From Candidatus Cloacimonadales bacterium (GTDB lineage: Bacteria; Cloacimonadota; Cloacimonadia; Cloacimonadales; JAFGVF01), in the NCBI GenBank assembly GCA_963677495.2, contig CAXXOU010000003.1, positions 320,001 to 384,000 of the forward strand: 64,000 nucleotides of DNA, in the 5' to 3' direction. Shown one piece after another: positions 26,139-56,660 of the stretch (within the stretch, counting starts at the first letter, position 1; each line of letters starts with the position of its first letter). The translations under genes and the position numbers were made by a program. The notes under the pieces are model-generated. The model was not told the DNA's origin and searched no databases. It was given only the letters and a program-made list of their open reading frames with translations.

Positions 26139-26171
26139 ACCCAGGGGAGCCCCAAGAGACTCCCAGGAATC
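26139..26171. repeat. 11-bp periodic array (CCCARG core)
   Basis: ACCCAGGGGAG / CCCCAAGAGAC / TCCCAGGAATC. Confidence 0.55.
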
Positions 26172-26275
26172 AGGCAATCAATTCTCAGTAATTATGATGG
26201 GGAAATGATATAGCGTAACTGCTTTAGAACAGATATCGGTTATCTGCCTTGTTTTGTTATAAAAATCCTACTCTC

Positions 26276-26368
26276 AACCACGCAAAATCAACACCCTAAC
26301 CACGCCCAAACCACGGTAGCCGTGGTTTACCCGTCGTTTACCCGTGGTCAACCCGTGGTCGGGAATAA
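26276..26368. repeat. Mirror-symmetric 11-bp periodic array (AACCACG core, 4+4 units)
   Basis: aaccacgcaaa/atcaacaccct/aaccacgccca/aaccacgg-tag-ccgtggtt/tacccgtcgtt/tacccgtggtc/aacccgtggtc-gggaataa. A homologous copy lies in inverted orientation at 51084-51176. Confidence 0.85.
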
Positions 26369-26484
26369 GAGATTCGTTAGACGCTCGGGTTTGAATTATT
26401 CAAATTATGGGATATGAACCATTATTTACTTTGAGACATGCAAAAATCATAATGATTAGATTCCATATATCATTAGATATTAGA

Positions 26485-27729
26485 CTACTTATGCGACACA
26501 ACATTAAATGGTATCCTCATCCAATCATCAATCAAGACAAAATCTTTCGCTTTCTTATCCCATTTTACTCGTTTTATCTCTAATGTATGGAGTCCCGGAA
26601 AAAGAGATTCAGTTGAGATGTATGTGGTTAGAAGTTCCTGCTTATAACTACTGTTTTTGGTTAACAACCACTCATCATTGTTTATTGGTTGGTCGTCTAT
26701 ATATACCCTATAGAGGGCTGTTTGGTCAACAGATTCTATGTCAACATCCGGTCTTATGATTGCAAACTTATCAGGATTGTTAGTAATCTCTCTCAAAAGG
26801 ATTCTATCGCTTTTGTAAGTACTTATATAGAGTTCCAGGTCACTGTTCGTAACATCATATGAGTTCAGTGCTGCACGCTGAATTCTAAGCTCATCGCTCT
26901 TCTTATCAAGATAGTTGTTCTGGTTAATAGATACTAAACCTGTCTTTGGCTTTTTAGTTACATCATTTGCATCAAACTTGAACTTATTGATGTTGGAATA
27001 TGACAATGGCACGACTAACATTGCAAATCCGAGAAGAAGTAGTATCTGAGTTTTCTTGGGGATATTGGTAGTAAATGTATTAAGCAGGTTATTTACAAGA
27101 GATTGAGAACCATTAAGCCCCGGTTTCTTACTCCTTGATCGCTGAAACCAAACAAATATAGCTGATAAACACAAGACCAATGCAACTTGAACTATTCGGG
27201 TCATTTGCGTGTCTAAGTTGAAGTTGTAGAGAAGCATAAAACAGATGATAAGAATAGAATAAAGTGCGATAATATTTATCAGAAATAAGATAATCGTGAA
27301 TGCGAAAGAGAAGATTAAGCTACATACTTTCTCCACCTCAATAACCAGATCAATCGGCTTCTTGAAGTCACTGTCCCGTAGCTCCTTCTTCAAATTCTCC
27401 TTCCTCACTCCGTTCGGGAACACATAGCTCAATCCAACCAAACCAGCCCAAAGTCCTCGAAGCACTAAGTGGCCTGTGAAAAGCACCTGAAGTGAGGTAA
27501 CGATAAAGGTCATCAATCCATATTGCACAGTAGAGAGAATGACATTTGCACCCAAATCCTGAATCAGCATCGCAGTGAAATTGTATATATACTTTGGAAG
27601 TAGGAAGAAGAAAGCAATGGAGAATCCTGATATGATTATCTCCGGTTCCCAGCTATTGTTCTGTATTTTTGTCAGCCAATCCGGTGTTTTGTTTTCTTGT
27701 GAAGTCATTTTACCCCCGATTAGAAGCAA
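26485..27729 (-). CDS. Hypothetical integral membrane protein
   Basis: NSWEPEIIISG and HLVLRGLWAGLVGLSYVFPNG, several TM segments and a soluble C-terminal domain. True start may be ATG 27708 (MTSQENK). Confidence 0.75.
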   Translation of the reverse strand: MLLIGGKMTSQENKTPDWLTKIQNNSWEPEIIISGFSIAFFFLLPKYIYNFTAMLIQDLGANVILSTVQYGLMTFIVTSLQVLFTGHLVLRGLWAGLVGLSYVFPNGVRKENLKKELRDSDFKKPIDLVIEVEKVCSLIFSFAFTIILFLINIIALYSILIICFMLLYNFNLDTQMTRIVQVALVLCLSAIFVWFQRSRSKKPGLNGSQSLVNNLLNTFTTNIPKKTQILLLLGFAMLVVPLSYSNINKFKFDANDVTKKPKTGLVSINQNNYLDKKSDELRIQRAALNSYDVTNSDLELYISTYKSDRILLREITNNPDKFAIIRPDVDIESVDQTALYRVYIDDQPINNDEWLLTKNSSYKQELLTTYISTESLFPGLHTLEIKRVKWDKKAKDFVLIDDWMRIPFNVVSHK

Positions 27730-27783
27730 TTAGTGTATAGAGATTTATGTTGTCAAATGGAAAGTTTTGCTTTTCAGGTAGAG

Positions 27784-28083
27784 TTCAACCCATATAGGGC
27801 TGTTTGGTTAATGTATAACTGGCACCCCAGGTCATTCGACCTGGGCTATTCACCTTAAGCCCTTAAACGGGCTTTCCTTGCCATAAAACTGACTTTTTTA
27901 TGATGATTTTATTGTTCTGATTAATCATACAAGGAAATATTAATTACTTGCAAAGATATATGTATCATGACAATATAGCATTGATTACCTGTCCGTTTAG
28001 GACAGAATGTGAATAGCCATGTGGCGTTAGCCCATGGTAAAAAATACAAAATGATTTCACAGCCCAATATGGGCTGAATTTGA
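27784..28083 (+). repeat. ~300-bp composite REP doublet (REPIN-like), copy 1, upstream of the Y1 transposase
   Basis: Collinear with 28538-28830; two inverted three-hairpin units around an AT-rich spacer. Confidence 0.9.
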
Positions 28084-28090
28084 GGTACCT

Positions 28091-28537
28091 ATGTCAACAT
28101 TTACAAGAATATTTTTCCATATCGTATTCAGTACAAAAGGTAGAATGCGTACTCTCCACAATCAATATAGGGAGAAATTGTTAGGATATATTTGTGGAGT
28201 TTTGAGAAACAAAAAATCACATGTTTATAGAATCAATATGGTCGAAGACCATATACATATCTTGTGCTCTATCCATCGATCAGAAAGTATTGCTGATATC
28301 GTGAAATTGATAAAAAATTCTACCTCAACTATGATAAAACGAGAAGGCATTCTTCCTGACTTTCACGGTTGGCAGAATGGATATGGTGCATTTACTGTTG
28401 AGTGGGGAAGCAAGGATAAGTTGATTGAATACATCAAAGATCAACCGGAACATCATAAAATTGTAGATTTTAAGACAGAGCTTAAAAAGATATTGGATGA
28501 ATGTGGTATTGAGTATAAGGATGCATATATTGAATGA
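28091..28537 (+). mobile_element. tnpA: IS200/IS605-family HUH (Y1) transposase, probably REP-associated (RAYT-like)
   Basis: HIVFSTK, EDHIHIL (HUH), WQNGYGAFTV and YIKDQPEHH (catalytic Tyr). No tnpB nearby; flanked by palindromic repeats. Confidence 0.92.
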
Positions 28538-28830
28538 TTCAGCCCATATAGGGCTGTTTGGTTAATGGGTAACTGCTACCCCGGGTCATTCGACCTGGGG
28601 CTATTCACCTTAAGCCCTTAAACGGGCTTTTTTTGCCTCAAAACTGATTCGATTAATTTAAGGTTTTGATTATTCATGCAGGGAGACAATTTTTACTTGC
28701 AAAGATATACGTATCATGATAATATAGCATGAATTATCTGTCCGATAAGGACAGAATGTGAATAGCCATGGGCGTTCAAGCCCATGGTCAAATGTAAAAT
28801 GAATTCGCAGCCCTATATGGGCGAATTTGA
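28538..28830 (+). repeat. ~295-bp composite REP doublet (REPIN-like), copy 2, starting right after the tnpA stop codon
   Basis: TTCAGCCCATATAGGGCTGTTTGGTTAATG...GACAGAATGTGAATAGCCATG...GCCCTATATGGGCGAATTTGA matches 27784-28083. Confidence 0.9.
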
Positions 28831-28831
28831 A

Positions 28832-28894
28832 GTAACTGCTACCCCAGATCATTCGATCAGGGGCTATTCACGAGTATAGCTCTCAAAGAGCTAT
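28832..28894 (+). repeat. Additional partial REP unit
   Basis: GTAACTGCTACCCCAGATCATTCGATCAGGGGCTATTCAC followed by the hairpin ATAGCTCTCAAAGAGCTAT. Confidence 0.8.
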
Positions 28895-28968
28895 GTGCAA
28901 GAGAGGGCTCATGCACTACATTTATCATCTCATCCCTCTGCTACAATCGTAATCACTTATCAAGGAGA

Positions 28969-29035
28969 CACCTATTGAAACCCTATTGAAATGTTGTTAA
29001 TGATTAATAGGTTTGGGACTCGTGTTTAAGTGGTT
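28969..29035. repeat. 11-bp periodic array (CCTATTGAA core), partly mirrored
   Basis: CACCTATTGAA / ACCCTATTGAA / atgttgttaat, then the inverted TTAATAGGT. Confidence 0.5.
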
Positions 29036-30332: not shown

Positions 30333-30685
30333 GGGGGTGTACAGGTTTCGACAGGGAATCTGGAGGATTAGTGATGCATGTCGAGGAGTTTACCTACTCG
30401 TTAATCATGGTGGAACCTAAACTTAAACGCAAACGATAATTTTGCACTTGCTGCTTAATTAGTAGCACGGACCGCTCAACCTCGCCGAATGGTTGGACCG
30501 GTTTTTCAAATAGCTCGGATAAGTACTCAGCAAGTCTGTAGTGAGTAACGAAAACCTAACAGGCTGGTTCTCGAAGAGTTCTGATTATCTTTCTTGAGAG
30601 AACGAGAAATAAAAGATAACTAAGCATGTAGATTCGCTTTTTGGCCGTTCTTTGGACGCGGGTTCGATTCCCGCCACCTCCACCA
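30333..30685 (+). ncRNA. ssrA: tmRNA, tag peptide (A)NDNFALAA*
   Basis: 5' GGGGGTGTACAGGTTTCGAC and 3' GACGCGGGTTCGATTCCCGCCACCTCCACCA. Tag ORF GCA AAC GAT AAT TTT GCA CTT GCT GCT TAA at 30429-30458. Confidence 0.97.
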
Positions 30686-30836
30686 GGCTTCATTTCGAGC
30701 GAAGTGAGAAATGAAGGCTGACACGGCGTAGCTTTTGCGAAGCCGGTCTAAAACAGTTTACTTTCCAACATTCGAAATTACGCCCTGGCAGGCCAATCTT
30801 GCCTTTTAACCTTTCATTTAAACTTGTGAGATTTCA

Positions 30837-31076
30837 ATGTATTATGTCTATATCCTACAAAGTCAGAAATATCCTTCCAAACATTATACTGGTTACACGA
30901 AAGACTTAACAAGTAGACTACAAAAACACAATAATGGGGAAGTTCCTCATACTTCCAAATACAAACCATGGAATCTTATCTCGTATATAGCCTTTCATGA
31001 TAAAACTAAAGCTCTTGCATTCGAAGATTATCTTAAATCTCATTCAGGTAGAGCATTCACAAATAAGCACTTCTAG
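30837..31076 (+). CDS. Stand-alone GIY-YIG nuclease family protein
   Basis: YYVYIL...HYTGYT.DL..RL.KHN.G...HTSKYKPW...AFEDYLKSHSGRAF. Confidence 0.92.
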   Translation: MYYVYILQSQKYPSKHYTGYTKDLTSRLQKHNNGEVPHTSKYKPWNLISYIAFHDKTKALAFEDYLKSHSGRAFTNKHF

Positions 31077-31195
31077 CGGAGCATATAAATGAAATTTATC
31101 GAGCCAAAATAAGATAATAGCTGTCTTGGAAGATAGGCAATAAAAAAACTAATTCGAAATATTGACATAATATTGAGTTGTGAAAAGTTAAGAGA

Positions 31196-31227
31196 ATAAA
31201 AACTAGCCCCTTCGATTGAAGAGGCTA
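31196..31227 (-). terminator. Rho-independent terminator of the small SMP-like gene
   Basis: Minus strand TAGCCTCTTCAATCGAAGGGGCTA followed by GTTTTTA. Confidence 0.65.
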
Positions 31228-31235
31228 TTGAAGAA

Positions 31236-31379
31236 TTAATTCTTCGATCTTGAATCAGCTTTGCTTTGAGCTCTGGAAGCGAAACTTCCTTTAGGAGTTT
31301 TCCCTCCGTTTGCCTTAGATGTCGCACTTTGAATACGACTTGCAGCTGATTTAGTCATTGGATTTGTTTTTTTGGACAT
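31236..31379 (-). CDS. 47-aa basic hydrophilic peptide, SMP/LEA-like (not in ORF track)
   Basis: AAGGAGG RBS; translation MSKKTNPMTKSAASRIQSATSKANGGKTPKGSFASRAQSKADSRSKN; followed by a terminator. Confidence 0.85.
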   Translation of the reverse strand: MSKKTNPMTKSAASRIQSATSKANGGKTPKGSFASRAQSKADSRSKN

Positions 31380-31566
31380 TTTGTCCTCCTTAAATTTTCT
31401 TCTCAGTGAATACTGAGAGTTCTTTGAAAATTCAAGAATAAATCTTATGACGGAAAATTTTATATAGAATGGAGGAATATCGTCAATTTTAAATTTTTTT
31501 AGTAAAAATAAATCTATTGAAAACCAGTTTAAGTTATCTGAAAAAGAAAAAGAGTTTCTCTCTACA

Positions 31567-32076
31567 TTGGGATTAATTGCAAGTACTGGATATATTTCAC
31601 TTTTTTTATATTCAAAATTTAATCAGAATAAAAAATATTCTACAGAAGAGATTAAGGAACTAAAGCAATTAACTCACAGTCTAAACAACACGATTATCGT
31701 TTTTGATCGAATAGATAGTTATAAGAATAGAATTGAATATATCTTGCACCTTTTAAAGAGTGATAATGCATACGCTTATGAGCAATCTGGTTTTTTAATA
31801 TTTGCTACACTAGAGTTATTTCTAAGGGAGCTAGCTAATCTATGCAAGTTAAAATTACCAAAGAATCCCACTATTATTGATTTAATTAAACGTTTACGAT
31901 CAGTTCAAGGAATTACTAAAGAAGAGCAAAAAAGATTAAAGCTTTATACTCTTAATTTTCGGAATCGCATAATGCATAGCAAAAAGTTTAATCATAACGA
32001 GCTACCTGATGTTATTGATTATATTTCAAATTTCATATATCATTATTCAACCTATGCTAGCATAAAGTACGATTAG
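31567..32076 (+). CDS. Putative HEPN-like (RxxxxH) protein with N-terminal hydrophobic segment
   Basis: FATLELFLREL helix and RNRIMH near the C-terminus. The frame is open further upstream to about 31468, so the start is uncertain. Confidence 0.6.
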   Translation: MGLIASTGYISLFLYSKFNQNKKYSTEEIKELKQLTHSLNNTIIVFDRIDSYKNRIEYILHLLKSDNAYAYEQSGFLIFATLELFLRELANLCKLKLPKNPTIIDLIKRLRSVQGITKEEQKRLKLYTLNFRNRIMHSKKFNHNELPDVIDYISNFIYHYSTYASIKYD

Positions 32077-32308
32077 AGCTTTTTTACTCAAAACCATCGA
32101 GACCGTGTTAAATATAAGTAAAAATTTAGTTTATGTGTAAGATTTGCAAAACTAAAACTTGTACGTGAAGATTGTAAATATTATTCAAACTATCCAATAC
32201 ACAACCCAATATTATTCAGGCATCACAGACGATGTAGAAAGAAGATTATCAGATCATAACTCTAGAAAATCATACTATTCTTTGATAGAATTGCTTTAGA
32301 TTATCCCC

Positions 32309-32671
32309 CTATCTCAACCACTCCATAGCCTTATCATAATCAGAAGTTATCATAAAGAATAAACCTCGATTGTTTGTGACAGTTTCATAAAAGTTACCGG
32401 CTTCGAGCTCATTTTTATCATATAATACTGCAACCCGAACAACTCTTGGTGCAGCTGCTTTAATCTGCTTTGCTAATCTGACTGTATCAAAAGTATCAAG
32501 CTTATGCTTTAAATGCTTTTCATTGCAAAATATTTTTTTACTCTCATGCTTTGCAGCCATTTCGATAACTGCTTCTACATATTGAAGAGTATCCTCGAGT
32601 TTATCTGCAACACCTGTTGCATTAACCTTTAAGAAATCACCTGCTATCTCTATTTGATAATCGATTTTCAT
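32309..32671 (-). CDS. SpoIIAA/STAS-SEC14-like hypothetical protein
   Basis: RVAVLY...FYETVTNNRG...YDKAMEWL pattern; AAGGAG RBS. Confidence 0.7.
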   Translation of the reverse strand: MKIDYQIEIAGDFLKVNATGVADKLEDTLQYVEAVIEMAAKHESKKIFCNEKHLKHKLDTFDTVRLAKQIKAAAPRVVRVAVLYDKNELEAGNFYETVTNNRGLFFMITSDYDKAMEWLR

Positions 32672-32813
32672 AGATTAATGTCTCCTTAGAATTATTAGAC
32701 TATAGCGATTTACATAGAATCGTCTACAAGACCCTTTTATAAAAGTATACACCAAACTATGATAAAGCATAATTATTTATAGATTGCTTTTTTTCTTATA
32801 GTTAGCTTATGGG

Positions 32814-33248
32814 CTAAGATTCATACTTCTCATAATAATCTAAGTCTTTTAAAACCTTATTTCTGGCAAATGGATAGATGATAATTAAAGAAACTAACTG
32901 CGTTAAGAAAGCCCATCCAATTGCATTACTATTAAGATCTATTACATTACTTACTGAAAACATAATCAACCACAATGTCATGCAGGGATATATGAAATAA
33001 AAAGATACTTTATGGGCTATCTGCGTTCGTATTTCCTGCTTTAACTGTTTTCTCTTTCTTAAAATTAGCAAAACAACAACAGCAACTACCCAACCTGCAA
33101 TAAAAAGTGGCAATACAAATGAATCAGGAATCATAGATTTATCAAAGATCTCCGGATGCTTTGTTACAATTATTTTAGCTATTTGTGCCAGTAAAACACT
33201 AACAAAAATTTCTATTGATAGAATAACATATAACTTTCGTTTATTCAT
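32814..33248 (-). CDS. Hypothetical 4-TM membrane protein
   Basis: Four hydrophobic segments; AAGGAG RBS. Confidence 0.7.
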   Translation of the reverse strand: MNKRKLYVILSIEIFVSVLLAQIAKIIVTKHPEIFDKSMIPDSFVLPLFIAGWVVAVVVLLILRKRKQLKQEIRTQIAHKVSFYFIYPCMTLWLIMFSVSNVIDLNSNAIGWAFLTQLVSLIIIYPFARNKVLKDLDYYEKYES

Positions 33249-33295
33249 GGACTTCTCCTTGCAATTTGTAGGTAACCTCTTTAGCTATTTTCACA

Positions 33296-36200
33296 CTACT
33301 TCATCAGAAGCATTTTTCTGGTTTTGTGATAATTATCAGTAGTCATTCGATAGAAGTATACACCACTTGAGCAGTTTCTTCCATTATTATCTTTCCCCTT
33401 CCAGACAATCTCATGATCTCCGGTAGGTTGATACTTATCAGTAATTGTTTTTACTAACTGCCCTCTTATGTTGTAAATTGATATGTTCACATGTTGCGGA
33501 CTCTTTAGATTGTATCGAATTGTCGTTTCAGGATTAAAAGGATTAGGGTAATTGTTACCTAAAAGCGTAACAAACGGCTGTTGTAAATCATCTTCAATAT
33601 CTACAAGTTCGTTGTTTGAGATCCTAATGTTATCAATCATAAGTACACCTGAGTTGTCAGAAATATTCTGAATTACGATTTGAATAGAATCAGCATTTGT
33701 TTCTGATAAATCATATTCATATAGAGTCCAACAATCAGGTGGTTCGATAGGAGTATCACCATTAAGGCATATATAATCCTCATCATCACAAATGTTATCA
33801 ACCAATACATTGAATTTACATGGGTTGCCATCATAAGAATATGATTTAGTAACAAAGTTCAATATCTCTGTACTATTCTCTATTTCGAATGGAGTTGATA
33901 ACAGCCAGTCATTTGCAACTCCTGAAGTTGGAGTGAATGCAGCAGCATAACGATCTCCGTTAAAGGCAGGAGCTGATGTAAATGGAGGAGTTGTTTGGCT
34001 AGGATTAAAGGTAATGAATCCCATAGTATTCTCTTCGACGGAGAAGTCGCACTCCGGTAACGCAATTGTTGGCAGAGAATCTAGATCTATTGTAGACCAG
34101 CTACCTTGAATAGCATAGAAGTTTTGGAGACTATCAAAGTCTTCAGAGTAGTAAGAATCAGTCTCATTAGAGATGTAAAAACTCACACTATTAGATACTA
34201 CTGATTGTCTATATGGGTTTTGGTAAACAGCACTCACAGTAAACTCATAATCATGTACTATTACAAGCGCGTCTTTAGGTACAAAGAAGGAAGAAGATAC
34301 TATTGGGCTTTCATTAAAGAGAATACCATTAGCAAATACATTGTATCCAACAAAATCTTCCTCTGATGGCATAGCTTCATTCCAGTTTAAGCAGACACCT
34401 GAACTACATAAGTAGCCTGTTAAGTCTTCCGGTGCATTCAGCGTACTCTCACCTGGTGGGGCGTCGAAAACTTTCACATCATCAAGACAGATATCACCCA
34501 GTTGATTTGAACCTAAAGCTTCATGCCCAATGAATGTAACGGTTATTGTATTAGCAGATAGTTCAGGAATAGGAATGACTTGTTCCTTCCAGAAATTGGT
34601 ACCGTTAGGACAAACTGCATTAGCAACGATTACAGAATCGCTGTCTGTCCTAATAAGTACATCCATAGATGATTCATTGGAGCTACTACCAATCCAATAC
34701 TTAAAACTAACATGTGGATTTGATAATCTAGATATATCAATAGGGACGCTATTCAGATATACCGGTGATATATTAGGCCACATAGTGTCTTGCATCATAT
34801 AATATCCACCATTACCGGTAGCCTCTTCTGATGCTCCAAATCTAGCGTCCTGATCTGTTACAAACCAGCTATCTTCTCCTAGCTGAGGTTCAATTACCCA
34901 ACCATCAGGGGATAAATCTGTGTCAAATGATTCAAAGTAGGGAGGTGAAAGCACAAAGTGATCAGTTCCTACAGCATTTACAGGAATAGTAGTCGTTCCC
35001 ATGCCTGATAATATTGTAATGTAATTACCTAATGCACCACACTCTCTACGTTTTAAGTTAACTGTTACTAATTCAGTTCCTCCAGCCATCAGGGTGAACG
35101 GACATTGAGTGTGAAGTAGTGAGTAGTTAATAGTATCATCAGTTAGGATTGATTGAATATTCAAAGGAGTTTGACCTAGATTTTGAATCTCAATGATTTT
35201 AGATTCTTGTAAAGAGCCAACGGAGTTGGTACCAAAGTCCAACTCCACAGGAGAAACTCTTACTTCTGATTCGGTCTCTAAAGGAGTGCAATGGAATCTA
35301 GTATCAACTACATATTCTTCCAACCTAAATCCATAGAAAGGACTATCTATATTAATTGGAGTATCACTATCAGATGAGCCACAACTTAGAGTTTTTGTGC
35401 CAATAACTTGAGTTGAGATATATCTGTATGGCATAGATTCATCTGTAAGAATCTCTTCGAAAAGAGCAATAACAATATTATCTGAGCCATTAAAAATAAA
35501 AGCAGTATCAAGTTCAACCTCAACCCATTGGTCAATAGTTTCTATGGGCATTGGCCCATTATATACTTCTAGCATTCTCTCTGTTGAAATCCAATCACTA
35601 TTTGAATCAAAAACAGATTTAGATGTATGTCCCACAAGAATCTTCCAATTAGCTATATCTTCCTCAAAATATTGATATTTACGTTTGAATGCAATATGCT
35701 CAATCTTAGAAGGTATTGAATTCAATGTTGAATGAGTGTAAAGAGATTGAGAATATGATTGAAATCGATTGTTATATACCGGAACCCCATAATGTTCACT
35801 ATCTCCACTGCCGAAGAATATATTCTCACCTGTTCTTGTTGTGAAGCTTCGAATTTGAGAGTTTGTAGCATCTCCTATATCGTTATATGGAATTACTTGC
35901 CAATAGTATTGGGTGTTTTCTTGTAAATCACTATAGTTATAGTTTGTAGTTAAACCTATATCTAGGTTATTTATGAGGTTAGTAGGCGGATTGTCTGTAC
36001 CCAATGATAATCTATATCCTTGCGTGTTCAGAGAGTGCTCCCACATTAGAGAGCCATATGAAAAGACATCATTTGCCTGGTCAAATGGTTTAGTTACTAA
36101 AGTAGGTTCTGGAATATCCTGATAACATCCACAACCAAGACGCAGATTTGGAAGTAGGGGTTGAAGGAATTGAGCATTACCGTACTCAGTCATATAGTCC

Positions 36201-41268: not shown

Positions 41269-41398
41269 ACCCCTTCAATCCTCGGGAGTGAATGGGGACT
41301 TAGTTGAGGATTTGGTGGGAATTTCTCGGGCAAAGCCCCGAGTGATTCCCGAGAGAGTCCCGGGAGATTCCCGTGTGTGTCCCGGGGATTGAAAGGGT
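41269..41398. repeat. Mirror-symmetric 11-bp periodic array (CCCGRG core, 5+5 units) with 19-bp terminal inverted repeats
   Basis: ACCCCTTCAATCCTCGGGA ... TCCCGGGGATTGAAAGGGT (17/19). Right arm: cccgagtgatt/cccgagagagt/cccgggagatt/cccgtgtgtgt/cccggggattg. Confidence 0.85.
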
Positions 41399-41615
41399 GC
41401 ATAGAGAGTATAAAGATGTTGCACTTCGTTCGAAGGACAGATTTCTTATATAATCAGAGACTTACAGGGACAGACAGGGACTAACAGCTAAGCACAGTTC
41501 TACTGTTTTTTGTTCCTTACTTTTATGCGTTCTCTATATAGTTTTTCAGTGAAGCCACTTTCTGAACAAATTTGTCTGCTAAATGCTTAACCTGTTTGTC
41601 ATTGCTATCTCTTAT

Positions 41616-45446: not shown

Positions 45447-45477
45447 AAGTTCCTCCAATTCATTTAATATTTGTCCC

Positions 45478-48123: not shown

Positions 48124-49504
48124 TCTCTTTGAGTATCGTAACAAAATAAAGTTTCAAGATAGTTTCGAAGGCTTAGAAAGCTTTCTTGATGAGATTTGGA
48201 ACAATCGTGATAAGAATTCCTTCTTTAGAAACAATGATGAAGATACGATAGAATCTCAAAGATTCATACAGTTTATCCACAAAACCAGTGAGTTAAAATC
48301 TAATAAATATGTTGGTGTAATTCACTATAAAGGCCAAAGGATAAATCTGTTACCAAAGATATTTTATGATTCCGAGAAAGAATACTCTGACAATCATATA
48401 TATCAGATCCATAATCACATTCTCTGGTGGTTAAGTTATTGTCGCAAAATCAAGTTTCCAAGCTACCAAACCACTTTGGGAAATAAAGAAAGTGATTTCT
48501 TTGAAGTCTTAATCTATCTCTTCTCCAAATACACTCGAAAACTCTTAAATTCCTCTATCTATCAGCAGTATCAGGAAGTTAATCGTGAGCTTTCGTATAT
48601 AAAAGGAAGACTTAATACTACCGGATATATCAATGAGAATGTGAGTAGAGGGAATTGGCATAAGCTCAATTGTACTTATGATGCATTTGTCATTGATAAT
48701 GAGTTCAATCGGATAATTAAATATGTTACAACCCTACTATTCAATGTTGCTACTAGGCAAGAGAATAAGAAGAATTTAAGAGAGATTCTGTTCATTTTGG
48801 ATGAGGTCACCGATGAAAGAGTCACTGCTGAGCAGTGTTCTAGAATTTCTTTTAATCCAATGTTTGGTGAGTTTGAAACTGTTAGAGACTATTGTCATTT
48901 ATTCCTTTCTAACAGCGTTTCTTTCGATTATAAGAATGATCTAAAGCTCTTTGCCTTTCTCTTACCTATGGAGTATGTCTTCGAAGACTTTATCTTCGGG
49001 TTTATTGATAAAGAGTTACCGGACATATCTGTAAAAGCTCAAAGAGGTGATACCTTCTTAGATATAGACAAAACATTTAAGATTAAACCGGACTTATGGA
49101 TTGAAACAGAAGACTTATCATTGATTGCTGATGCAAAGTATAAGATTATCTATGAGGATAACAGTGATCCCAAGAAAGGCATTTCTCAACCAGATCTTTA
49201 CCAGATGCTTGCCTATGCTGTAAGGTTTAAGGTGTGCAATATAATTCTGTTTTATCCAAGTACTGTTATACAAGATCAAGAAGAAGAAACTGAAATCATA
49301 ATTAAAGATACACTTGCATTAGAGAAAGAAGTTAAAATAAAGGTACATCAGTTACCAATAATAAATATCCCTCTATTGGAGACAAAGATAAGTTCAAATG
49401 TTGATATAAAAGAATTGTTTAAACCAACGCGCGACAATTTAGCTAATAAAATAAGAAGTATTCTCACTCAAATATGTAATAAACAGTCAATTGATTCCAA
49501 TTAA
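48116..49504 (+). CDS. mcrC: McrC-family PD-(D/E)xK nuclease
   Basis: INLLPKI, YIKGRL, MEYVFEDFI, KPDLWI...ADAKYK and DLYQMLAYA; overlaps the mcrB stop. Confidence 0.92.
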   Translation: MNNLFEYRNKIKFQDSFEGLESFLDEIWNNRDKNSFFRNNDEDTIESQRFIQFIHKTSELKSNKYVGVIHYKGQRINLLPKIFYDSEKEYSDNHIYQIHNHILWWLSYCRKIKFPSYQTTLGNKESDFFEVLIYLFSKYTRKLLNSSIYQQYQEVNRELSYIKGRLNTTGYINENVSRGNWHKLNCTYDAFVIDNEFNRIIKYVTTLLFNVATRQENKKNLREILFILDEVTDERVTAEQCSRISFNPMFGEFETVRDYCHLFLSNSVSFDYKNDLKLFAFLLPMEYVFEDFIFGFIDKELPDISVKAQRGDTFLDIDKTFKIKPDLWIETEDLSLIADAKYKIIYEDNSDPKKGISQPDLYQMLAYAVRFKVCNIILFYPSTVIQDQEEETEIIIKDTLALEKEVKIKVHQLPIINIPLLETKISSNVDIKELFKPTRDNLANKIRSILTQICNKQSIDSN

Positions 49505-50851: not shown

Positions 50852-50940
50852 TACCCAATCCGGCAAACCCTCCCGTAGCCCACACGAAGATCTCCCGTAG
50901 GTCTCCCGTAGCTACTTACGAGTGGCGTACGTATCGGGTA
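50852..50940. repeat. 11-bp periodic array (CTCCCGTAG core), partly mirrored
   Basis: ctcccgtagcc/cacacgaagat/ctcccgtaggt/ctcccgtagct, then tacgagtggcg/tacgtatcggg; bounded by TACCCAAT...ATCGGGTA. Confidence 0.75.
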
Positions 50941-51083
50941 TCAATTAACTACTTGAGAGAGTACCGCTTTGGGCACATTGGGTCTGTAAACATCCCTGTT
51001 CGCGCCCCTTTTTTACGTATTCTTTAAATTAACAATAGATATTGACTATCTTATGTTAACACTGAATAGCTATACCTTAACTT

Positions 51084-51176
51084 TTATACCCGACCTCGGG
51101 TTAACCACGGGACTCCCATAGGTTGACCACGGCTTCCGTGGTTTGGGCGTGTTTTAGGCGTAGTTTGTCCTTGGAT
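51084..51176. repeat. Mirror-symmetric 11-bp periodic array, inverted homolog of 26276-26368
   Basis: Reverse complement reads atccaaggaca/aactacgccta/aaacacgccca/aaccacgg-aag-ccgtggtc/aacctatggga/gtcccgtggtt/aacccgaggtc-gggtataa. Confidence 0.85.
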
Positions 51177-51434
51177 GACTAACAGTCATTTACTGGACTG
51201 CTATCAGTATTCGCATTGAGTTGCGTTCCTATTAATTATATCCTGTCTTACTTTTGAAGTATAGAGGTCTGTCTTGACAAGTCAGCAAGTTAATCGCACT
51301 AGATAGCATAAACAGCGTAGAATAACACCACCAGTTACTTTTTTCTTCCTTGACAAACTATTGTCTTAAGCAGTTTTATATCGTATAATGCAAGAATTGT
51401 AAACTAAAGTTTTGAAATACTTAGAGGAGATAAT

Positions 51435-54400
51435 ATGAAAAAGATTCTAACAATTGCTATTTTACTCACTATTATCGTGGGCTTAGTAGCACGTGTTCCT
51501 TTTGAAAAGGGACGTTATTATGACAACATACTACATGCTTGTTTTAAAATGGAGTCAGTAGGAAACATGGATGGTATTATTGAGTTTGATTTAAACGAAG
51601 ATAGTATCATTGTAACAGGTATGGAGAGCTTTGATAAGCTTGCTGAGACATACAAGTTTATCGACATGAAACAGATTTACACTCCAAAAGACAAGGAATG
51701 GAATAAAGACGGTCACTATTTACAATGTATTTATGAGATTAGAATCTCTGATAATGACCAGATGGAAGAAGTGCTTGTTGCTCTTAATCATGATGAGAAC
51801 ATTCATTATGCTCAATACGATGTTATAATGAGAGAACGTTATGTACCTAATGATCCTGACTATCATTTCCAATATTATATCCCTATTACGCATACAGATG
51901 AAGCATGGGAGTTTGGCTTAGGTTCTGAAGATATTACTGTCGGTATCTCAGACTCAGGTGTTTACTGGAATCATCCTGACCTTAGAGACAATATTTGGAT
52001 TAATGAAGCTGAAATGACAGAAGATGTTTTCATCGATTGGGATAATGGTGAAATATATGGCGGTGACGGTCTTGATAATGACCAGAACGGTAAAGTTGAT
52101 GACGTTATCGGCTGGAACTTCGCTATGAATACTAACAACCCACACCAAGATTTCCCTGGTAATGAACATGGAACCCATGTTGCCGGTTGTGCTTCTGCTG
52201 TTGGTGATAATGGTATCGGTGTTGCAGGTCCCGGATTCAATGTTAAAATCATGTGTGCAAGCGGAAGACCTGATAATGAATCAGGAACAGGTGTTGGCTA
52301 TGGTTATGCAATGCTTCAATACTTTGCTGACCTCGGTTGTGATGTTGGTAATGCAAGTTGGGGTGGACAGGAACCAAGTGATTATTGGTTCAATGAATAT
52401 AGAGAAGTTATCCAATATTGTAATGCACAGGGTATGCTTGTTGTAGCTGCAGCGGGTAATGACAATACTGAACATACAGCTGAATACCGTGATGCTCCCG
52501 GTGATATCCCTGAAGTTCTTTGTGTAGCTGCTACTTCCAGTAACGACACAAAAGCAGGTTTCTCTGATTATGGTGTTCCAATTGATATCAGTGCTCCGGG
52601 TGCAGGTATCTATTCAACATATTATGGAACTAACATGTACGAATCAAACAATGGTACATCAATGGCGTCTCCAATTGTTGCAGGTATTGCAGGACTTGTT
52701 AAGTCAGTTCATCCTGACCTTACACATGACCAGTTAAGAGCAAGACTTGAAACAACTGCTGATGATATATATCCAATGAACGAATCATATGCTGACGTTG
52801 CAGCCGGTGAGTTCTTACTCGGTAGTGGAAGAGTCAACGCTTTAGCTGCTGCTTATTATGATGTATTACCAAACGTAAACATAGAAGAAGTATTCATTGA
52901 AGAAGTAAATGGTGACGGCGATGGCATCCCTAATCCGGGAGAGACTATTGAAGTTGCTGTTCAGATTAATAACCTTATGTATATGGGAACAATGACTCCT
53001 ACTTTCTATACTTGGGCAACTGCTTATGATGTACAAGCTACGCTTTCAAGCCCTTTAGCAGGTGTTACTGTTTCTAACGAAACAAGTGATTTTGGAACTA
53101 TCTCAGGTGGTTCCTCTATTGCAAACTTCAATGATAAGTTTGTTGTAAATACTACAACTGACTTAACACCTGATAATATTCCAATGGAATTAACTATCAC
53201 ATCTAATCTGGATACTGAATGGCCTTATACTATTACAAGAACATTCAATCTTGACCTTTCACTTTTGCATGCAGACTTCCCTGTGAACATCGGTGGTGGA
53301 TCTGTTTCTTCGCCAACAATTCTTGACCTTAACAACGATGGAACTAATGAGATTGTTTTCACTCGTCCTGATGGTTCTTTAGATGCTCTTTATGCTGATG
53401 GTACACAGTATATGCCCGGTACATTCCCTGTAGCTATGGGTGGAACTATCACAAGTTCACCGGCATTTGCAGACTTAGACAATGACGGAACTATCGAAAC
53501 TGTTCTTTGTATGCAGAGTGGTCAAATCAGATGCATCAGTGCTGATGGTACTGATTTCTTTACACCTTATGATAATATTGGTGCTACACGTACTAACCCT
53601 ATTATCGCTGACCTTGATGGTAATGGTTCATTAGAAATCATCGCTGTTTCTCAGGCTCGTGAGCTTGTTATTCTTAACAGTGATGGAACTACTTACTCAG
53701 ATACGTATCCATTGAATATTAATGAATCTGCTCTTGCTCCAAGTGCTGTTGGTGATGTGAACAATGATGGTACACTTGATATCGTTGTTGCCACTACATC
53801 TTCTAACCTTCATGTATTTGATTCTTCTACAGGTGCAGAACTTACAGGCTTCCCTGTAAACTATGATTCATACTCACTTACAGGTCCTACACTAACTCAG
53901 CTTGATGATGATGCAAATATGGAAATCATCGTAGCTTCAACAGCAACCGGTGAAGTTCATGCTTATGATGATGACGGTTCAGTTATCTTTGAAAGAACTC
54001 TCGATGACCAGGTTAAAACTTCTCCTGTTGTAGGTAAAGTAAACGGTACTGTTGGCGAAGCTCAGATTGTTGTTATCTCTAACGCAGGTACTGTTTATGT
54101 GATGGATGAAAATGGTAATGACATCCCTAACTTCCCTGTGTCAGTTGATGCTAACGTTGAATCTTCACCTATCCTTGCCGGTCTTAACGGTGCAGGTGAT
54201 GCAACTATTATTTTTGGTGATAATGATGGTAACCTCCATGGTATCAAATGGAATGGTCAGGAAAACATAAACTTCCCTATGGCTTTCGAAAGCTCAATCA
54301 AATCAAGTCCATCAGTTGGTGACCTTGATGGTGATGGCCAGATGGACGTAGTATTTGCTGATCAGTATTCAATCTATGACTTAGATCTTAAGTACGGTCT

Positions 54401-54779
54401 AGGCAACGATGACAGTATTTATTACCGTGGTGATATTGCTAGAACTGGTAGCAGAGGTTATCTCATAGTAGATAATGATGATCAGGTCGTAAAACCTATC
54501 GTTGCTAACGTATTACATAATGCTTACCCTAATCCTTTCAACCCAGAGACAACTCTCTCTTTCGAACTTAAAGCTGCATCTGATGCAACTCTCGAAGTGT
54601 TCAATATCAAAGGACAGAAAGTTAATACTCTCGTAGAAAGAAGATTAAGTAAAGGTTCACATACAGTAGTTTGGAGTGGTGATGACAAGAATGGTAACAC
54701 AGTACCAAGTGGTATCTATTTCTACAAACTAACTGCAGGTAACGAAACACTTACAAAGAAAGCTGTATTAATGAAATAA
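51435..54779 (+). CDS. Secreted S8 subtilisin-like peptidase with FG-GAP/VCBS repeats and C-terminal FlgD-Ig/Por-type sorting domain
   Basis: ISDSG, HGTHVAG, AAGN and GTSMASP; repeated DL(D/N)xDGxxEI; YPNPFNPETT...KKAVLMK. Confidence 0.93.
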   Translation: MKKILTIAILLTIIVGLVARVPFEKGRYYDNILHACFKMESVGNMDGIIEFDLNEDSIIVTGMESFDKLAETYKFIDMKQIYTPKDKEWNKDGHYLQCIYEIRISDNDQMEEVLVALNHDENIHYAQYDVIMRERYVPNDPDYHFQYYIPITHTDEAWEFGLGSEDITVGISDSGVYWNHPDLRDNIWINEAEMTEDVFIDWDNGEIYGGDGLDNDQNGKVDDVIGWNFAMNTNNPHQDFPGNEHGTHVAGCASAVGDNGIGVAGPGFNVKIMCASGRPDNESGTGVGYGYAMLQYFADLGCDVGNASWGGQEPSDYWFNEYREVIQYCNAQGMLVVAAAGNDNTEHTAEYRDAPGDIPEVLCVAATSSNDTKAGFSDYGVPIDISAPGAGIYSTYYGTNMYESNNGTSMASPIVAGIAGLVKSVHPDLTHDQLRARLETTADDIYPMNESYADVAAGEFLLGSGRVNALAAAYYDVLPNVNIEEVFIEEVNGDGDGIPNPGETIEVAVQINNLMYMGTMTPTFYTWATAYDVQATLSSPLAGVTVSNETSDFGTISGGSSIANFNDKFVVNTTTDLTPDNIPMELTITSNLDTEWPYTITRTFNLDLSLLHADFPVNIGGGSVSSPTILDLNNDGTNEIVFTRPDGSLDALYADGTQYMPGTFPVAMGGTITSSPAFADLDNDGTIETVLCMQSGQIRCISADGTDFFTPYDNIGATRTNPIIADLDGNGSLEIIAVSQARELVILNSDGTTYSDTYPLNINESALAPSAVGDVNNDGTLDIVVATTSSNLHVFDSSTGAELTGFPVNYDSYSLTGPTLTQLDDDANMEIIVASTATGEVHAYDDDGSVIFERTLDDQVKTSPVVGKVNGTVGEAQIVVISNAGTVYVMDENGNDIPNFPVSVDANVESSPILAGLNGAGDATIIFGDNDGNLHGIKWNGQENINFPMAFESSIKSSPSVGDLDGDGQMDVVFADQYSIYDLDLKYGLGNDDSIYYRGDIARTGSRGYLIVDNDDQVVKPIVANVLHNAYPNPFNPETTLSFELKAASDATLEVFNIKGQKVNTLVERRLSKGSHTVVWSGDDKNGNTVPSGIYFYKLTAGNETLTKKAVLMK

Positions 54780-54800
54780 ACTTACAAACATAGACTATGA

Positions 54801-54832
54801 AAGGCTAAAGCGGAACGCTTTAGCCTTTTTTT
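54801..54832 (+). terminator. Rho-independent terminator
   Basis: AAGGCTAAAGCG-gaa-CGCTTTAGCCTT followed by a T run. Confidence 0.88.
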
Positions 54833-55012
54833 AGATTCAGGACAGTCTTTCATACAAACTAATAAATGTGAAGAAGATATGTAATATATAAAATTGACAA
54901 TTTATCTAGATCGTGTAAAAAATAAACTTGCACTTCAAAGAAAAGAAAGTAGGGTGGTTTAAATAGTCTGGTAGGATTTAACAAAGATTCAGTAGGAACT
55001 GAAGGAGAAGTT

Positions 55013-56401
55013 ATGAAAAAGCTTTTGTTTGTGTTGATTGTCATATTAATGTTGCCTATTGCTTTATTCTCTCAAGACACATGGGATAGAATGGTTAGAC
55101 CATTAACATGGTTTCACCATATGTTTGAGGTATATGAGATAAAGGAATGCTATGACGGTGGGTATGCAATGATTGGTAGCTGTCAGTGGTATTTAGATGA
55201 AGTAGATATGCATCCAAGAACATATATTATGAAAACTGATAGTGAAGGCATACTGCAGTGGTCTATTCAGGATTCAATTGATGCTACCGGAAACAATAAC
55301 CATTTTAGCCATATTGGATTTGTAGAAACTCCTGATCATGGATTCATTGTTGCAACTCACAGAAGTCTATTTAAATATGATGAATTTGGGAATAGATGTT
55401 GGTCTCATAATGAAGATAGTGAAACTGGATTCGATATGACAGATATAACTATGACAAATGATGGCAATATTTTGCTCAGCGGCAGAATAAATTACGTTGC
55501 TTCATGCAGGAAGATAACTCAAGATAATGAGATAATTTGGGAAAAAACTTATCCTGTTCCAGATAATCAATATAGCATTGTTCGTACTAGTTTTTATACT
55601 GAGTCAAATAATCTAATTCAAGTAGTTGCTGCTCAACCTGACTTCTTTGAAGATGGATTCATTTTGATATATAAGTGTGATTCACTGGGGGATACATTAT
55701 TAGTAAACAGAGATATACCAGATGAATATTTTCGCTGTTTCGGTAATATATATGAGGATATTGACACTTCTAATCTTTATTTCACAAATGGGAATGCAAC
55801 TTTGATAGCTAACTCAGATTGTGAGATAATTAGTTATAATTTCCCAACCATTGATGCGACTAAATTAGAATATCACTCTCCAAGTACATTAATCACAAGA
55901 GGAATATACTATCATGTGTTAGATAAGAATAGTCTCGTAGAAATATATTCCTCAGAGGAGACCGGCACAGAACTGGGGCATATTGATGGATATGAAACTT
56001 TTATTATCCTGGACGATGGTTTTATGGTGACTGCAGGTGATTTTACATACAGTGATGGAATTCGCATTATCAAAACAAACTCACTTGGTGCTGTACCTAG
56101 CTGCGATTACACAATTCCTGAACCAAATCAGATGATACTGAGTAACTACCCTAATCCTTTCAACCCTGAGACAACTCTTTCTTTTGAACTTAAGGCTGAT
56201 TCTGATGCAACTCTTGAAGTGTTCAATATCAAAGGACAGAAAGTTAATACTCTCGTAGAAAGAAGATTAAGTAAAGGTTCACATACAGTAGTTTGGAGTG
56301 GTGAAGACAAGAAAGGTAATACTGTAACAAGTGGTATCTATTTCTACAAACTAACTGCAGGTAACGAATCAGTAACAAAGAAAGCTGTATTAATGAAATA
56401 A
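55013..56401 (+). CDS. Secreted beta-propeller-like protein with C-terminal FlgD-Ig/Por-type sorting domain
   Basis: Signal peptide; DGGY...KTDSEG...W type repeats; C-terminal tail nearly identical to the upstream gene. Confidence 0.82.
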   Translation: MKKLLFVLIVILMLPIALFSQDTWDRMVRPLTWFHHMFEVYEIKECYDGGYAMIGSCQWYLDEVDMHPRTYIMKTDSEGILQWSIQDSIDATGNNNHFSHIGFVETPDHGFIVATHRSLFKYDEFGNRCWSHNEDSETGFDMTDITMTNDGNILLSGRINYVASCRKITQDNEIIWEKTYPVPDNQYSIVRTSFYTESNNLIQVVAAQPDFFEDGFILIYKCDSLGDTLLVNRDIPDEYFRCFGNIYEDIDTSNLYFTNGNATLIANSDCEIISYNFPTIDATKLEYHSPSTLITRGIYYHVLDKNSLVEIYSSEETGTELGHIDGYETFIILDDGFMVTAGDFTYSDGIRIIKTNSLGAVPSCDYTIPEPNQMILSNYPNPFNPETTLSFELKADSDATLEVFNIKGQKVNTLVERRLSKGSHTVVWSGEDKKGNTVTSGIYFYKLTAGNESVTKKAVLMK

Positions 56402-56423
56402 TCTTGTATATTCTAATAAACAA

Positions 56424-56457
56424 AGGCTAAAGCAGAAAACTTTAGCCTCTTTTTTTT
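56424..56457 (+). terminator. Rho-independent terminator (related to 54801-54832)
   Basis: AGGCTAAAG...CTTTAGCCT followed by T8. Confidence 0.82.
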
Positions 56458-56597
56458 AAAGTAACAACCTCTTTGTCGACCATAACATCATTATCTATCA
56501 GGCAATTACTAAGCAAATCATTTATCATAATGATTAGCTAGGTCCTAACTGGTTCTCTTTATCTAATCTCATCAAAAACCTAGAATCTCGCATGTCC

Positions 56598-56660
56598 CTC
56601 CCTTTAGCCTCCCTAGACCCTCCCTATGAACCCCTAAAGTTATCCACATCGTGTGCATAA
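56598..56660. repeat. 11-bp periodic array (CTCCCT core) followed by two inverted DnaA-box-like nonamers
   Basis: ctccctttagc/ctccctagacc/ctccctatgaa/cccctaaag; TTATCCACA at 56640-56648 and TGTGCATAA at 56652-56660. Confidence 0.65.

Follow-up and report, generated by a model that had tools for sequence, protein, structure and literature searches.

What are the short arrays that repeat a core motif every 11 bp in the intergenic gaps of a Cloacimonadota chromosome? The question arises from a window of 64,000 nt of the Candidatus Cloacimonadales bacterium chromosome (contig CAXXOU010000003.1, positions 320,001 to 384,000; coordinates below are those of the window), in which an initial annotation had claimed seven such arrays. 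They are probably short non-coding dispersed repeats of the chromosome, of a little-known and putatively protein-bound kind. In our favoured reading, to which we assign a probability of roughly 0.4, the arrays are MITE-like dispersed elements, the arms of which would offer helically phased binding sites to an oligomerising recombinase or transposase encoded in trans.

Periodicity

Period 11 accounted for 10 of the 23 TRF rows obtained for the window, and period 22 for one. Among 44-nt segments with at least 28 self-matches, lag 11 was observed at 41 positions and lag 22 at 19, with 0-7 positions for each other lag between 5 and 24. Exact 5-mers with at least three consecutive recurrences occurred in the window at three loci for lag 11 and at none for lags 7-10 and 12-16. 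Three successive units with at least seven identical columns were found at lag 11 at four loci of the window, all of them intergenic; the matches at lags 12 and 15 in the same test fall within coding DNA. Autocorrelation of the pooled intergenic DNA of the window (23 gaps, 7,121 bp) was likewise enriched at lag 11 (z = 4.66) and at lag 22 (z = 3.35), the next best value being 2.88. Lag 11 ranks first in each periodicity test that we ran, and the 11-bp periodicity reported initially is thus both real and specific. The sole lag-10 locus in the lag scans of the window is an array of 4-5 ACAGGGAC-type units on the forward strand (41455..41499; TRF period 10), 57 bp from the array that we call C.

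Tested individually, all seven intervals named in the initial annotation had lag 11 as the best among lags 5-18. After correction over lags, p was at most 0.003 for 26276-26368, 41269-41398, 50852-50940, 51084-51176, and 56598-56640, and weaker for 26139-26171 (0.023) and 28969-29035 (0.043), the significance of all these values being inflated by the choice of the intervals beforehand. Five arrays out of the seven thus stand as robust when taken singly, and two are marginal. The GC-richness ascribed to the arrays holds for six of them (53-64% GC) but not for 28969-29035 (34% GC). Together the arrays occupy 0.88% of the window, yet they contain 20 of its 120 CCCG/CGGG occurrences.

Architecture and common descent

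In each arm of the arrays, a GC-rich core of 6-9 bp, in many cases CCCG(N)RG or CGTGGTT, occurs 3-5 times at intervals of exactly 11 bp, and in the best-preserved copies two arms are inverted about a dyad. Array A (26274..26371; p < 0.003, corrected over lags) is a dyad element of ~98 bp, in which four copies of AACCACG, an axis at 26318, and four copies of CGTGGT(T/C) share a single 11-bp register. It gave TRF rows at 26276 and 26320, its dyad matches at 26 of 45 positions, and ~7 of its 8 cores are intact. Array B (51081..51178; p < 0.003) is a diverged, oppositely oriented copy of the A element, with an axis at 51134 and ~5 of 8 cores intact. Array C (41269..41398) is a dyad element of ~126 bp, with five GGGA-type units, an axis at 41333.5, and five copies of TCCCG(A/G/T)G; TRF detects periods 11 and 22 in it, and 36 of its 62 dyad positions match, the outer 16 nearly perfectly. 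On the outside, C is bounded by an inverted repeat, CCCCTTCAATCC / GGATTGAAAGGG (16/18 matches), a unique sequence beyond the phased units.

The remaining arrays, all given for the forward strand, are less complete. Array D (50862..50940; p < 0.003) carries CTCCCGTAG at three of four phased positions and a GTAGCTAC axis near 50912; the inverted arm that follows is weak, with TACG at 50917 and 50928. Array F (56591..56640; p = 0.003) consists of 3-4 direct CCTCCCT units without an inverted arm, and the marginal array G (26139..26171) of three phased CCC(A/C)A(G)G units. The AT-rich array E (28969..29035) contains two copies of CCTATTGAAAC and one inverted TAATAGG; with a TRF score of 42 over 1.9 copies, it cannot be told from chance. 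The flip of orientation at a central axis, as initially described, is thus clear in A, B, and C, weak in D, and absent in F and G. Since the second arm of D is weak and F has none, these two arrays may be a different thing.

Arrays A, B, and C, with 4+4 or 5+5 units, are alike in two further respects: (i) their innermost sites are separated by 12 bp centre-to-centre, and (ii) the 11-bp register continues through the axis. Within arms, the cores are conserved and the 4-5-bp spacers vary, whereas between arms the spacers are not complementary. This argues for selection on the repeated sites and not on a stem, and the pattern is better suited to sites arrayed along a single face of the double helix than to a hairpin under selection.

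Arrays A and B, located at unlinked loci 25 kb apart, share 75.5% identity over 98 bp, spacers included (BLAST within the window, E = 4.5e-18); they are the only two demonstrated copies of one family, both within 64 kb. With just this level of identity, any mobility would not be recent. Units 0, 1, 3, 4, and 5 of B are identical to those of A at 10 of 11 positions and units 2, 6, and 7 at 4-7 of 11, and the core losses of B relative to A are not accompanied by compensating changes. A CCCG(N)RG-type core is common to four arrays (A/B, C, and D), and the spacing between CCCG occurrences is 11 in eight cases, 22 in six, and 33 in three, with 0-2 cases at other distances. The proposal that geometry rather than sequence is conserved was therefore overstated, given one homologous family and a core found in four arrays. 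Preservation is graded, from the 10 units of C through A and B to the partial arrays D, F, and G, as would be expected of neutrally decaying insertions.

The same data bear on an origin of the arrays as mutational by-products, in which 11-bp slippage minisatellites later underwent fold-back (palindromic) duplication and have neither partner nor function. Some adjacent units are indeed near-identical with their spacers, as in the right arm of A, where neighbouring units match at 86% (TRF), or in D, which contains two perfect 11-mers (TRF), and unit number differs among arrays. However, slippage explains neither the same period at seven loci, when no other non-coding period recurs, nor the core common to separate loci, nor the faster divergence of spacers than of cores, and A and B inherited the entire 8-unit architecture. 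We regard this origin as improbable.

Folding, genomic setting, and a putative binding platform

Array C folds as one long RNA hairpin (-73.4 and -61 kcal/mol on the two strands, z = -6.2 and -6.1) and has a fold z of -4.4 as DNA. The RNA fold of A is weakly significant (z = -2.7 / -1.8), and the five others (B, D, E, F, and G), with z from -1.8 to +0.7, gave no fold signal. Arrays occupy long intergenic gaps: A, C, D, and E each lie downstream of a stop codon, at a distance of 48-113 bp, and F sits between the convergent intrinsic terminators 56424-56448 (+) and 56848-56832 (-). No canonical terminator is predicted for the genes flanking C.

The folds of C and A, the positions, and the lack of a predicted terminator at C speak for the arrays being hairpins, of RNA or of single-stranded DNA, within 3' UTRs, where they would act, like REP elements, as terminators, stabilisers, or processing sites, with the 11-nt period reflecting the A-form helix. 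Against this, five arrays have no fold signal, non-complementary spacers would interrupt the stems every 11 nt, B has lost pairing relative to A without compensatory change, F lies beyond an intrinsic terminator on either side, and nothing in a hairpin calls for stem segments that are identical. At the gathering threshold, only tmRNA and three tRNAs of the window pass in Rfam, and no array does; the best array matches below it (E <= 10) are to eukaryotic families and lie far beneath it (scores of 21.7 and 27.8 bits, with thresholds of 75 and 80, respectively). The arrays thus match no catalogued RNA family above threshold. Hairpins as a general explanation receive little credence from us, although C folds so stably as RNA that this array may have an RNA role.

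For D and F only, one could propose Rho-utilisation (RUT) sites, that is, C>G RNA with a C every 11-13 nt downstream of a gene. In RhoTermPredict, such sites are stretches of 78 nt in which C exceeds G and a C recurs every 11-13 nt (PMC6407284). In the sense of the upstream gene, the C/G ratio is 1.55 for D and 4.4 for F, and by the measure of C>G over ~78 nt of transcript the values are 1.59 and 3.33, respectively. The ratio is 0.62-0.86 for A, B, and G, as it is for C when read in the direction of its nearest gene. Identical 7-9-nt cores are not required of such sites, the arrays are just 45-80 nt long, and F comes after an intrinsic terminator. This proposal is the least likely of those considered here.

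No coding potential was found in the arrays and no cas gene in the window, in agreement with the initial statement that the arrays contain no credible ORF, transposase, or cas gene. Within the window, no DNA-binding, rep, par, or transposase gene adjoins any array, and any factor would therefore act in trans. Pfam analysis of the 47 ORFs of the window revealed no Rep, ParA/ParM/TubZ, or RHH protein, and the window has no autonomous parent element, serine recombinase, tnpA/tnpB, or empty site. The sole transposase-like gene in the window encodes an IS200-type Y1 protein (Y1_Tnp, 28091-28537) and is flanked by its own ~290-bp composite REP-like repeats with CAGCCCATATAGGGCTG-type hairpins, to which the arrays had no match in BLAST against the window. 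No consistent direct repeat indicating a target-site duplication was observed beside C or at the boundaries of A/B homology, which two diverged copies place with a precision of only a few bp, and no consistent termini emerged for A, B, and C. A BLAST comparison of the arrays with plasmid and phage sequences gave no match, and one scan of a genome collection gave only chance matches, in high-GC genomes.

The initial annotation had offered two readings, a loading or wrapping site and a non-autonomous element. Both survive with partial support, and they may be one thing: the strict 11.0-bp register, the dyad, and the core/spacer pattern support the former, and the homologous copies A and B, the range from intact to decayed arrays, and the location downstream of genes or between convergent terminators support the latter. 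In the favoured reading, the arrays would be foldback-type non-autonomous elements and decaying relics of such elements. Through their arms, they would offer multiple sites to a DNA-binding recombinase or transposase that oligomerises cooperatively and has its gene in another part of the genome, with one subunit or dimer per helical turn. This protein would nucleate near the axis or the ends and pair the two arms, much as dimers of the serine recombinase TnpA of the IS607 family form a filament on subterminal motifs in helical phase, and each element family would have its own core. Mobility, the binding of a protein, and what that protein is are inferences on our part.

The arrays could also be host cis-acting sites, maintained by the host and not selfish, that serve as platforms for a chromosomal oligomerising protein (nucleoid-structuring, silencing, segregation, or an OmpR/PhoB-type regulator). 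Strict phasing, conserved cores, free spacers, and the dyad would suit such sites equally, one protein could read all four arrays with the common core, and an S8 peptidase gene (51435-54779) follows downstream of B and D. Moreover, a direct-repeat geometry of 7+4 = 11 bp is typical of SARP and OmpR-family winged-helix regulators. On the other hand, C, E, and F are found where genes or terminators converge, not at promoters; preservation is very uneven, with cores of B lost without compensation; the homology of A and B extends to the spacers, pointing to common descent of the whole element and not to convergent evolution of sites; and the window has no candidate gene for the binding protein close by. 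We therefore consider host sites unlikely, though less so than the preceding alternatives.

More broadly, and only tentatively, the arrays may represent an undescribed class of prokaryotic foldback elements, so far in Cloacimonadota, in which phased 11-bp core arrays about a dyad would be loaded by a putative filament-forming recombinase or chromosome-structuring factor, with several core 'dialects' per genome. Should the arrays indeed be bound by a recombinase or chromosomal protein that forms filaments, they would give access, by way of sequence, to an as yet undescribed protein-DNA system of an uncultured phylum, and would be the bacterial equivalent of those eukaryotic transposons that carry subterminal repeats. 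If they are ordinary decaying MITEs, the value is smaller, namely improved intergenic annotation of Cloacimonadota genomes. Phase, besides sequence, can reveal repeat families overlooked by ordinary repeat finders.

Comparison with known systems

Several known systems share parts of this architecture. CRISPR arrays have 21-48-bp repeats, unique spacers of similar length, and often cas genes; this identity was rejected given the 11-bp units, the 4-5-bp spacers, and the window free of cas genes. Plasmid centromeres and iterons (R1 parC/ParR, pBtoxis tubC/TubR, and the 11-bp repeats of pMV158 RepB) are arrays of 10-12-bp repeats, often in two blocks, that bind one dimer per turn cooperatively in a curved filament at a single locus by the par or rep genes. 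The arrays share phased 10-12-bp direct repeats with iterons and with centromeres of types Ib, II, and III, but such an assignment was rejected, as at least five arrays are dispersed through 30 kb of chromosomal DNA that carries housekeeping genes, and the window has no rep or par gene near them. OmpR/PhoB and SARP operators are composed of head-to-tail 7-bp direct repeats with 4-bp spacers and regulator-specific cores, in 2-4 units overlapping or adjoining the promoter -35 region; they were rejected in view of the 8-10 units in inverted arms and the convergent setting of C, E, and F. In E. coli oriC, two oppositely oriented arrays of low-affinity DnaA boxes (9-mers with 2-bp spacing) likewise have an 11-bp period and guide oligomer growth, but the cores of our arrays are not DnaA boxes, and such boxes show no enrichment in the window (25 occurrences, 22.4 expected).

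The arrays resemble MITEs, REPs, and REPINs in being small, non-coding, GC-rich in an AT-rich genome, built of inverted repeats, and located in intergenic or 3' positions; at least two diverged copies (A and B) of one family are present in the window. Terminal inverted repeats are present in C (the 16/18 repeat) and in A, where the outermost units pair, and absent from F and G. Unlike REPs and typical bacterial MITEs, the arrays have internal helically phased sub-repeats, and no target duplication was seen. RAYT-associated REP/REPIN elements, which form a family of GC-rich palindromes of 20-40 bp that match the repeats on either side of the RAYT gene, were rejected, the repeats at Y1_Tnp being another sequence family.

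The closest mechanistic parallel is offered by the IS607 family. According to PMC6188088, the left end of IS1535 has four 9-bp helically phased direct motifs that are cooperatively bound by TnpA dimers; in the family, motifs vary among elements, and target duplications are lacking. As in the arrays, IS607-family ends carry several short direct motifs in helical phase, over ~40-70 bp, and that publication describes cooperative binding of TnpA as a filament that pairs the two ends, with element-specific motifs comparable to the differing cores of the arrays. The arrays differ in having arms fused back to back, no cargo, a uniform 11-bp period, and no tnpA/tnpB in the window. We found no description of an IS607-derived MITE in the literature.

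Eukaryotic foldback, CACTA, and hAT elements combine a TIR with many short subterminal motifs in inverted arms. They belong to another domain of life, have variable motif spacing, and depend on DDE transposases. PMC6188088 also mentions hAT elements with subterminal transposase-binding repeats. Array C is like these elements in combining a terminal inverted repeat with short motifs in inverted arms, and its arrangement, judged by sequence layout, is that of 'TIR plus subterminal repeats'.

Periodicity of the intergenic arrays

The initial annotation described at least seven GC-rich intergenic arrays, in which a short core is repeated every 11 bp, and this period was singled out by every periodicity test applied to the window: (i) Tandem Repeats Finder reported 23 rows, 10 with a period of 11 and one with a period of 22, (ii) 44-nt windows with at least 28 self-matches were found at 41 positions for a self-comparison offset (lag) of 11 bp and at 19 for lag 22, all other lags from 5 to 24 giving 0-7 positions, (iii) exact 5-mers with at least three consecutive recurrences mark 3 loci at lag 11 and none at lags 7-10 and 12-16, and (iv) runs of three successive units that agree in 7 or more columns were detected at 4 loci at lag 11, all of them intergenic, while the few matches of the same test at lags 12 and 15 are located in coding DNA. 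At a threshold of 6 columns, the window contains 7 lag-11 loci versus 1.5 on average and 6 at most over 100 simulations by a first-order Markov model. Pooling of the 23 intergenic gaps (7,121 bp) gave an enrichment over simulated intergenic DNA of z = 4.66 for lag 11 and 3.35 for lag 22, with 2.88 for the next best lag (300 simulations). Our lag-11 detector asks for three or more units that agree in at least 7 of 11 columns and includes a dyad test; a rough control of 1.36 Mb from genome-collection loci, unmatched in composition, yielded 0.8 lag-11 arrays per 64 kb versus 4 in the window.

Lag 11 is the best lag among 5-18 in all seven intervals, and five of them reach p <= 0.003 in a shuffle test taking the maximum over lags. 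The intervals 26139-26171 (array G, p = 0.023) and 28969-29035 (array E, p = 0.043) are marginal, all the more so because the intervals had been picked for periodicity beforehand; array E, with a GC content of just 34%, also departs from the description of the arrays as GC-rich. Pure chance is excluded as the origin of the five robust arrays. The 11-bp arrays are a genuine feature with solid statistics behind it, uncatalogued until now.

Two other short-period repeats were observed. The only array of the window with a 10-bp period (41455-41499, four to five units of the ACAGGGAC type) lies 57 bp from array C (41269-41398), in the same convergent gap. The strongest periodic signal other than 11 bp is a 12-bp repeat at 7249-7314, inside a coding region (7219-8370) that has no Pfam match; it probably encodes a 4-residue peptide repeat.

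Architecture and common core

The best-preserved arrays consist of two arms of opposite orientation around a dyad axis. Array A (26274-26371) has four copies of AACCACG, an axis at 26318 and four copies of CGTGGT(T/C), all in a single unbroken 11-bp register. In array C, five GGGA-type units are followed, across an axis at 41333.5, by five TCCCG(A/G/T)G units, and an inverted repeat of unique sequence, CCCCTTCAATCC / GGATTGAAAGGG, encloses the array. In array D (50862-50940), CTCCCGTAG occupies three of the four phased positions and the inverted arm is weak; array F (56591-56640) has three to four direct CCTCCCT units and lacks a second arm. The proposed flip of orientation at a central axis is clear for A, C and array B (51081-51178), weak for D and absent from F. 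The innermost two sites are spaced by 12 bp centre-to-centre in A, B and C alike.

Arrays A and B can be aligned over 98 bp without gaps, in opposite orientation, at 75.5% identity (E = 4.5e-18). The similarity extends to the spacers and about 8 bp beyond the first unit. Of the eight units, five are identical at 10 of 11 positions and three are decayed; judged by this alignment, A and B are one and the same element. Their core is (A/T)CCCG(T/A)GGT, that of C is TCCCG(N)G and that of D is TCCCGTAG. In the window, 8 pairs of CCCG are 11 bp apart, 6 are 22 bp and 3 are 33 bp apart, with 0-2 at other distances within 4-44 bp; for CCC, 24 pairs are 11 bp apart versus 1-14 elsewhere. The arrays hold 20 of the 120 CCCG/CGGG of the window, though they make up 0.88% of it. 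The geometry described in the initial annotation was right, whereas its statement that the cores are unrelated proved too strong, given that A and B are one element and that CCCG-type cores are found in A/B, C and D. A functionless product of slippage and fold-back duplication is an improbable origin for these arrays, since it would leave unexplained both the single period at seven loci and the common core.

Of the 11 columns of a unit, 6-8 are conserved across an arm, the others being variable; dyad matches are clustered in bursts at the cores only, and the spacers are non-complementary between the arms. Array C is the only one that folds as a single strand far better than its shuffles (z = -4.4 as DNA, -6.2 and -6.1 as RNA); array A is borderline (z from -1.8 to -2.7), and the folds of B, D, E, F and G do not differ significantly from shuffles. 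RNA or single-stranded DNA hairpins in 3' untranslated regions would suit C and no other array, and this reading is quite doubtful, as the segments of a stem need not all be one word and the pairing present in A is lost in B with no compensatory changes. From identical cores at each turn, free spacers and the dyad, we infer a site array for a symmetric, cooperatively spreading protein that binds duplex DNA.

Genomic setting and database searches

The window, from an uncultured Cloacimonadota member, is chromosomal and lies in a 541,871-bp contig; one relative, at 88-92% identity, is found on a 3.1-Mb contig. For the NtrC-type regulator at 62188-63528, the best named relatives, 'Candidatus Cloacimonetes bacterium' and 'Candidatus Zophobacter franzmannii', are 79-80% identical. 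The GC content of the window is 30-42%. A polysaccharide cluster occupies 1-18740, and among the other loci are genes for several secreted proteins with a T9SS tail, for McrBC, for a CoA-disulfide reductase fusion and for an IS200-like Y1 transposase, as well as tmRNA and three tRNAs.

Several of these loci have features of their own. In a 982-aa protein (19234-22182), a beta-lactamase-fold domain (residues 39-359) occurs together with a PAF-acetylhydrolase/PETase-like hydrolase domain (627-948), and a TetR regulator gene adjoins the gene of this protein. The type IV restriction module at 45832-49504 pairs a 763-aa McrB-like AAA+ protein with a 462-aa McrC. The 808-aa fusion at 38382-40808 joins CoA-disulfide reductase, rhodanese, TusA and DsrE; one relative is 92% identical, and the next homologues, named from Fusobacteria (Ilyobacter, Hypnocyclicus) and Bacillota, are only about 57% identical, which suggests lateral acquisition. 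The tmRNA, whose tag ANDNFALAA had no match in a literature search, is followed by a 79-aa GIY-YIG ORF (30837-31076), by a second, degenerate GIY-YIG-like ORF (32159-32299) and by the part of the window poorest in GC (30-31%, at 31-33 kb), where small ORFs lack Pfam matches. The region 30333-33300 is a possible island inserted at ssrA.

A stop codon precedes the start of arrays A, C, D and E by 48-113 bp, C, E and F are flanked by convergent genes, and B and D share a 645-bp gap upstream of an S8 peptidase gene. As claimed initially, the arrays contain no credible ORF, and a repeat cannot be encoded with a period of 11 bp. Array F is probably untranscribed, since two predicted intrinsic terminators, 56424-56448 (+) and 56848-56832 (-), face each other around it. 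For D and F, Rho-utilisation sites were also considered: cytosines recur every 11-13 nt in such sites (PMC6407284), and D and F, read in the direction of their upstream gene, have C/G ratios of 1.55 and 4.4, respectively; this function is unsuited to the dyad arrays, and we regard it as very improbable.

DNA-binding, replication, partition and transposase domains are absent from the array neighbours, except for the Y1 transposase (28091-28537, Pfam Y1_Tnp E = 1.4e-21), and by-eye inspection of the neighbouring ORFs lacking Pfam matches (41616-41993, 37916-38269 and 22968-23807) revealed no DNA-binding look. The transposase gene, within the region 27784-28825, is flanked by direct copies of a composite repeat of about 290 bp (27784-28077 and 28538-28825, 83-92% identical) that contain REP-like hairpins (CAGCCCATATAGGGCTG; CCCCGGGTCATTCGACCTGGGG), with additional hairpin copies at 25998-26018 and at 28832-28871. 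The arrangement resembles a RAYT and an associated REP cluster, the repeats being a family distinct from the 11-bp arrays.

In Rfam, nothing matched the arrays at gathering thresholds, and at E <= 10 they drew matches to eukaryotic families alone, all of them far below threshold. The sole BLASTN match of A and C to 72,556 plasmids and 50,697 phages was a weak one (E = 0.04) in a Microbacterium phage. A search aimed at spurious ORFs across sister copies compared the stop-to-stop translation of array C with 1.84 billion representative proteins and gave four matches, all to unrelated long tandem-repeat proteins. A genome-collection scan with the pattern of the A/B centre gave at least 115 loci, rejected as chance matches of a GC-rich pattern: nearly all are in high-GC genomes (lowest 40%, others at least 53%), and no lag-11 structure surrounds the matches listed. 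Searches of the openly accessible literature provided no account of phased, 11-bp or iteron-like dispersed arrays, or of Cloacimonadota repeats.

TAACTGA heptamer repeats are reportedly contiguous, with a period of 7. An identification with these direct repeats of Beggiatoaceae, Cyanobacteria and Bacteroidetes was rejected, the heptamers being located mostly just upstream of start codons (PMC4679880). At 56640-56660, directly adjoining array F, a perfect DnaA box, TTATCCACA, is separated by 3 bp from an inverted partner with one mismatch. An origin is not indicated there, nor was an oriC/DnaA role retained for the arrays, since the window shows no enrichment of DnaA boxes (25 observed versus 22.4 +/- 4.2 expected).

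Possible origin and related systems

We propose, with a probability of about 0.4, that the arrays are MITE-like foldback-type dispersed elements and their relics. The arms would be helically phased sites bound by an oligomerising recombinase or transposase encoded in trans. Dispersal is supported by the A/B homology, by a decay that is graded from C to G and by the 'safe' positions between genes. Counting against this proposal, just two copies are demonstrated in the window, where neither a target duplication, a parent element nor a serine recombinase was found, and the A/B identity of 75% means that any activity is not recent. Nucleation or wrapping sites, or operators, maintained by the host would agree with the array geometry and the common core, but disagree with the uneven decay and the position between convergent terminators, and we consider them rather unlikely. 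The two readings offered initially, a binding site and a mobile element, are compatible with each other.

We class the arrays with small dispersed repeats of the palindromic or iteron-like kind. Array C, with its terminal inverted repeat and subterminal phased motifs, is also reminiscent of CACTA, hAT and foldback elements of eukaryotes. The closest documented mechanism to the proposed binding platforms is that of the IS607 family, in which four helically phased 9-bp direct motifs at the left end of IS1535 nucleate a TnpA-dimer filament capturing the other end (PMC6188088). The motifs of this family vary by element, and its members do not make a target duplication (PMC6188088).
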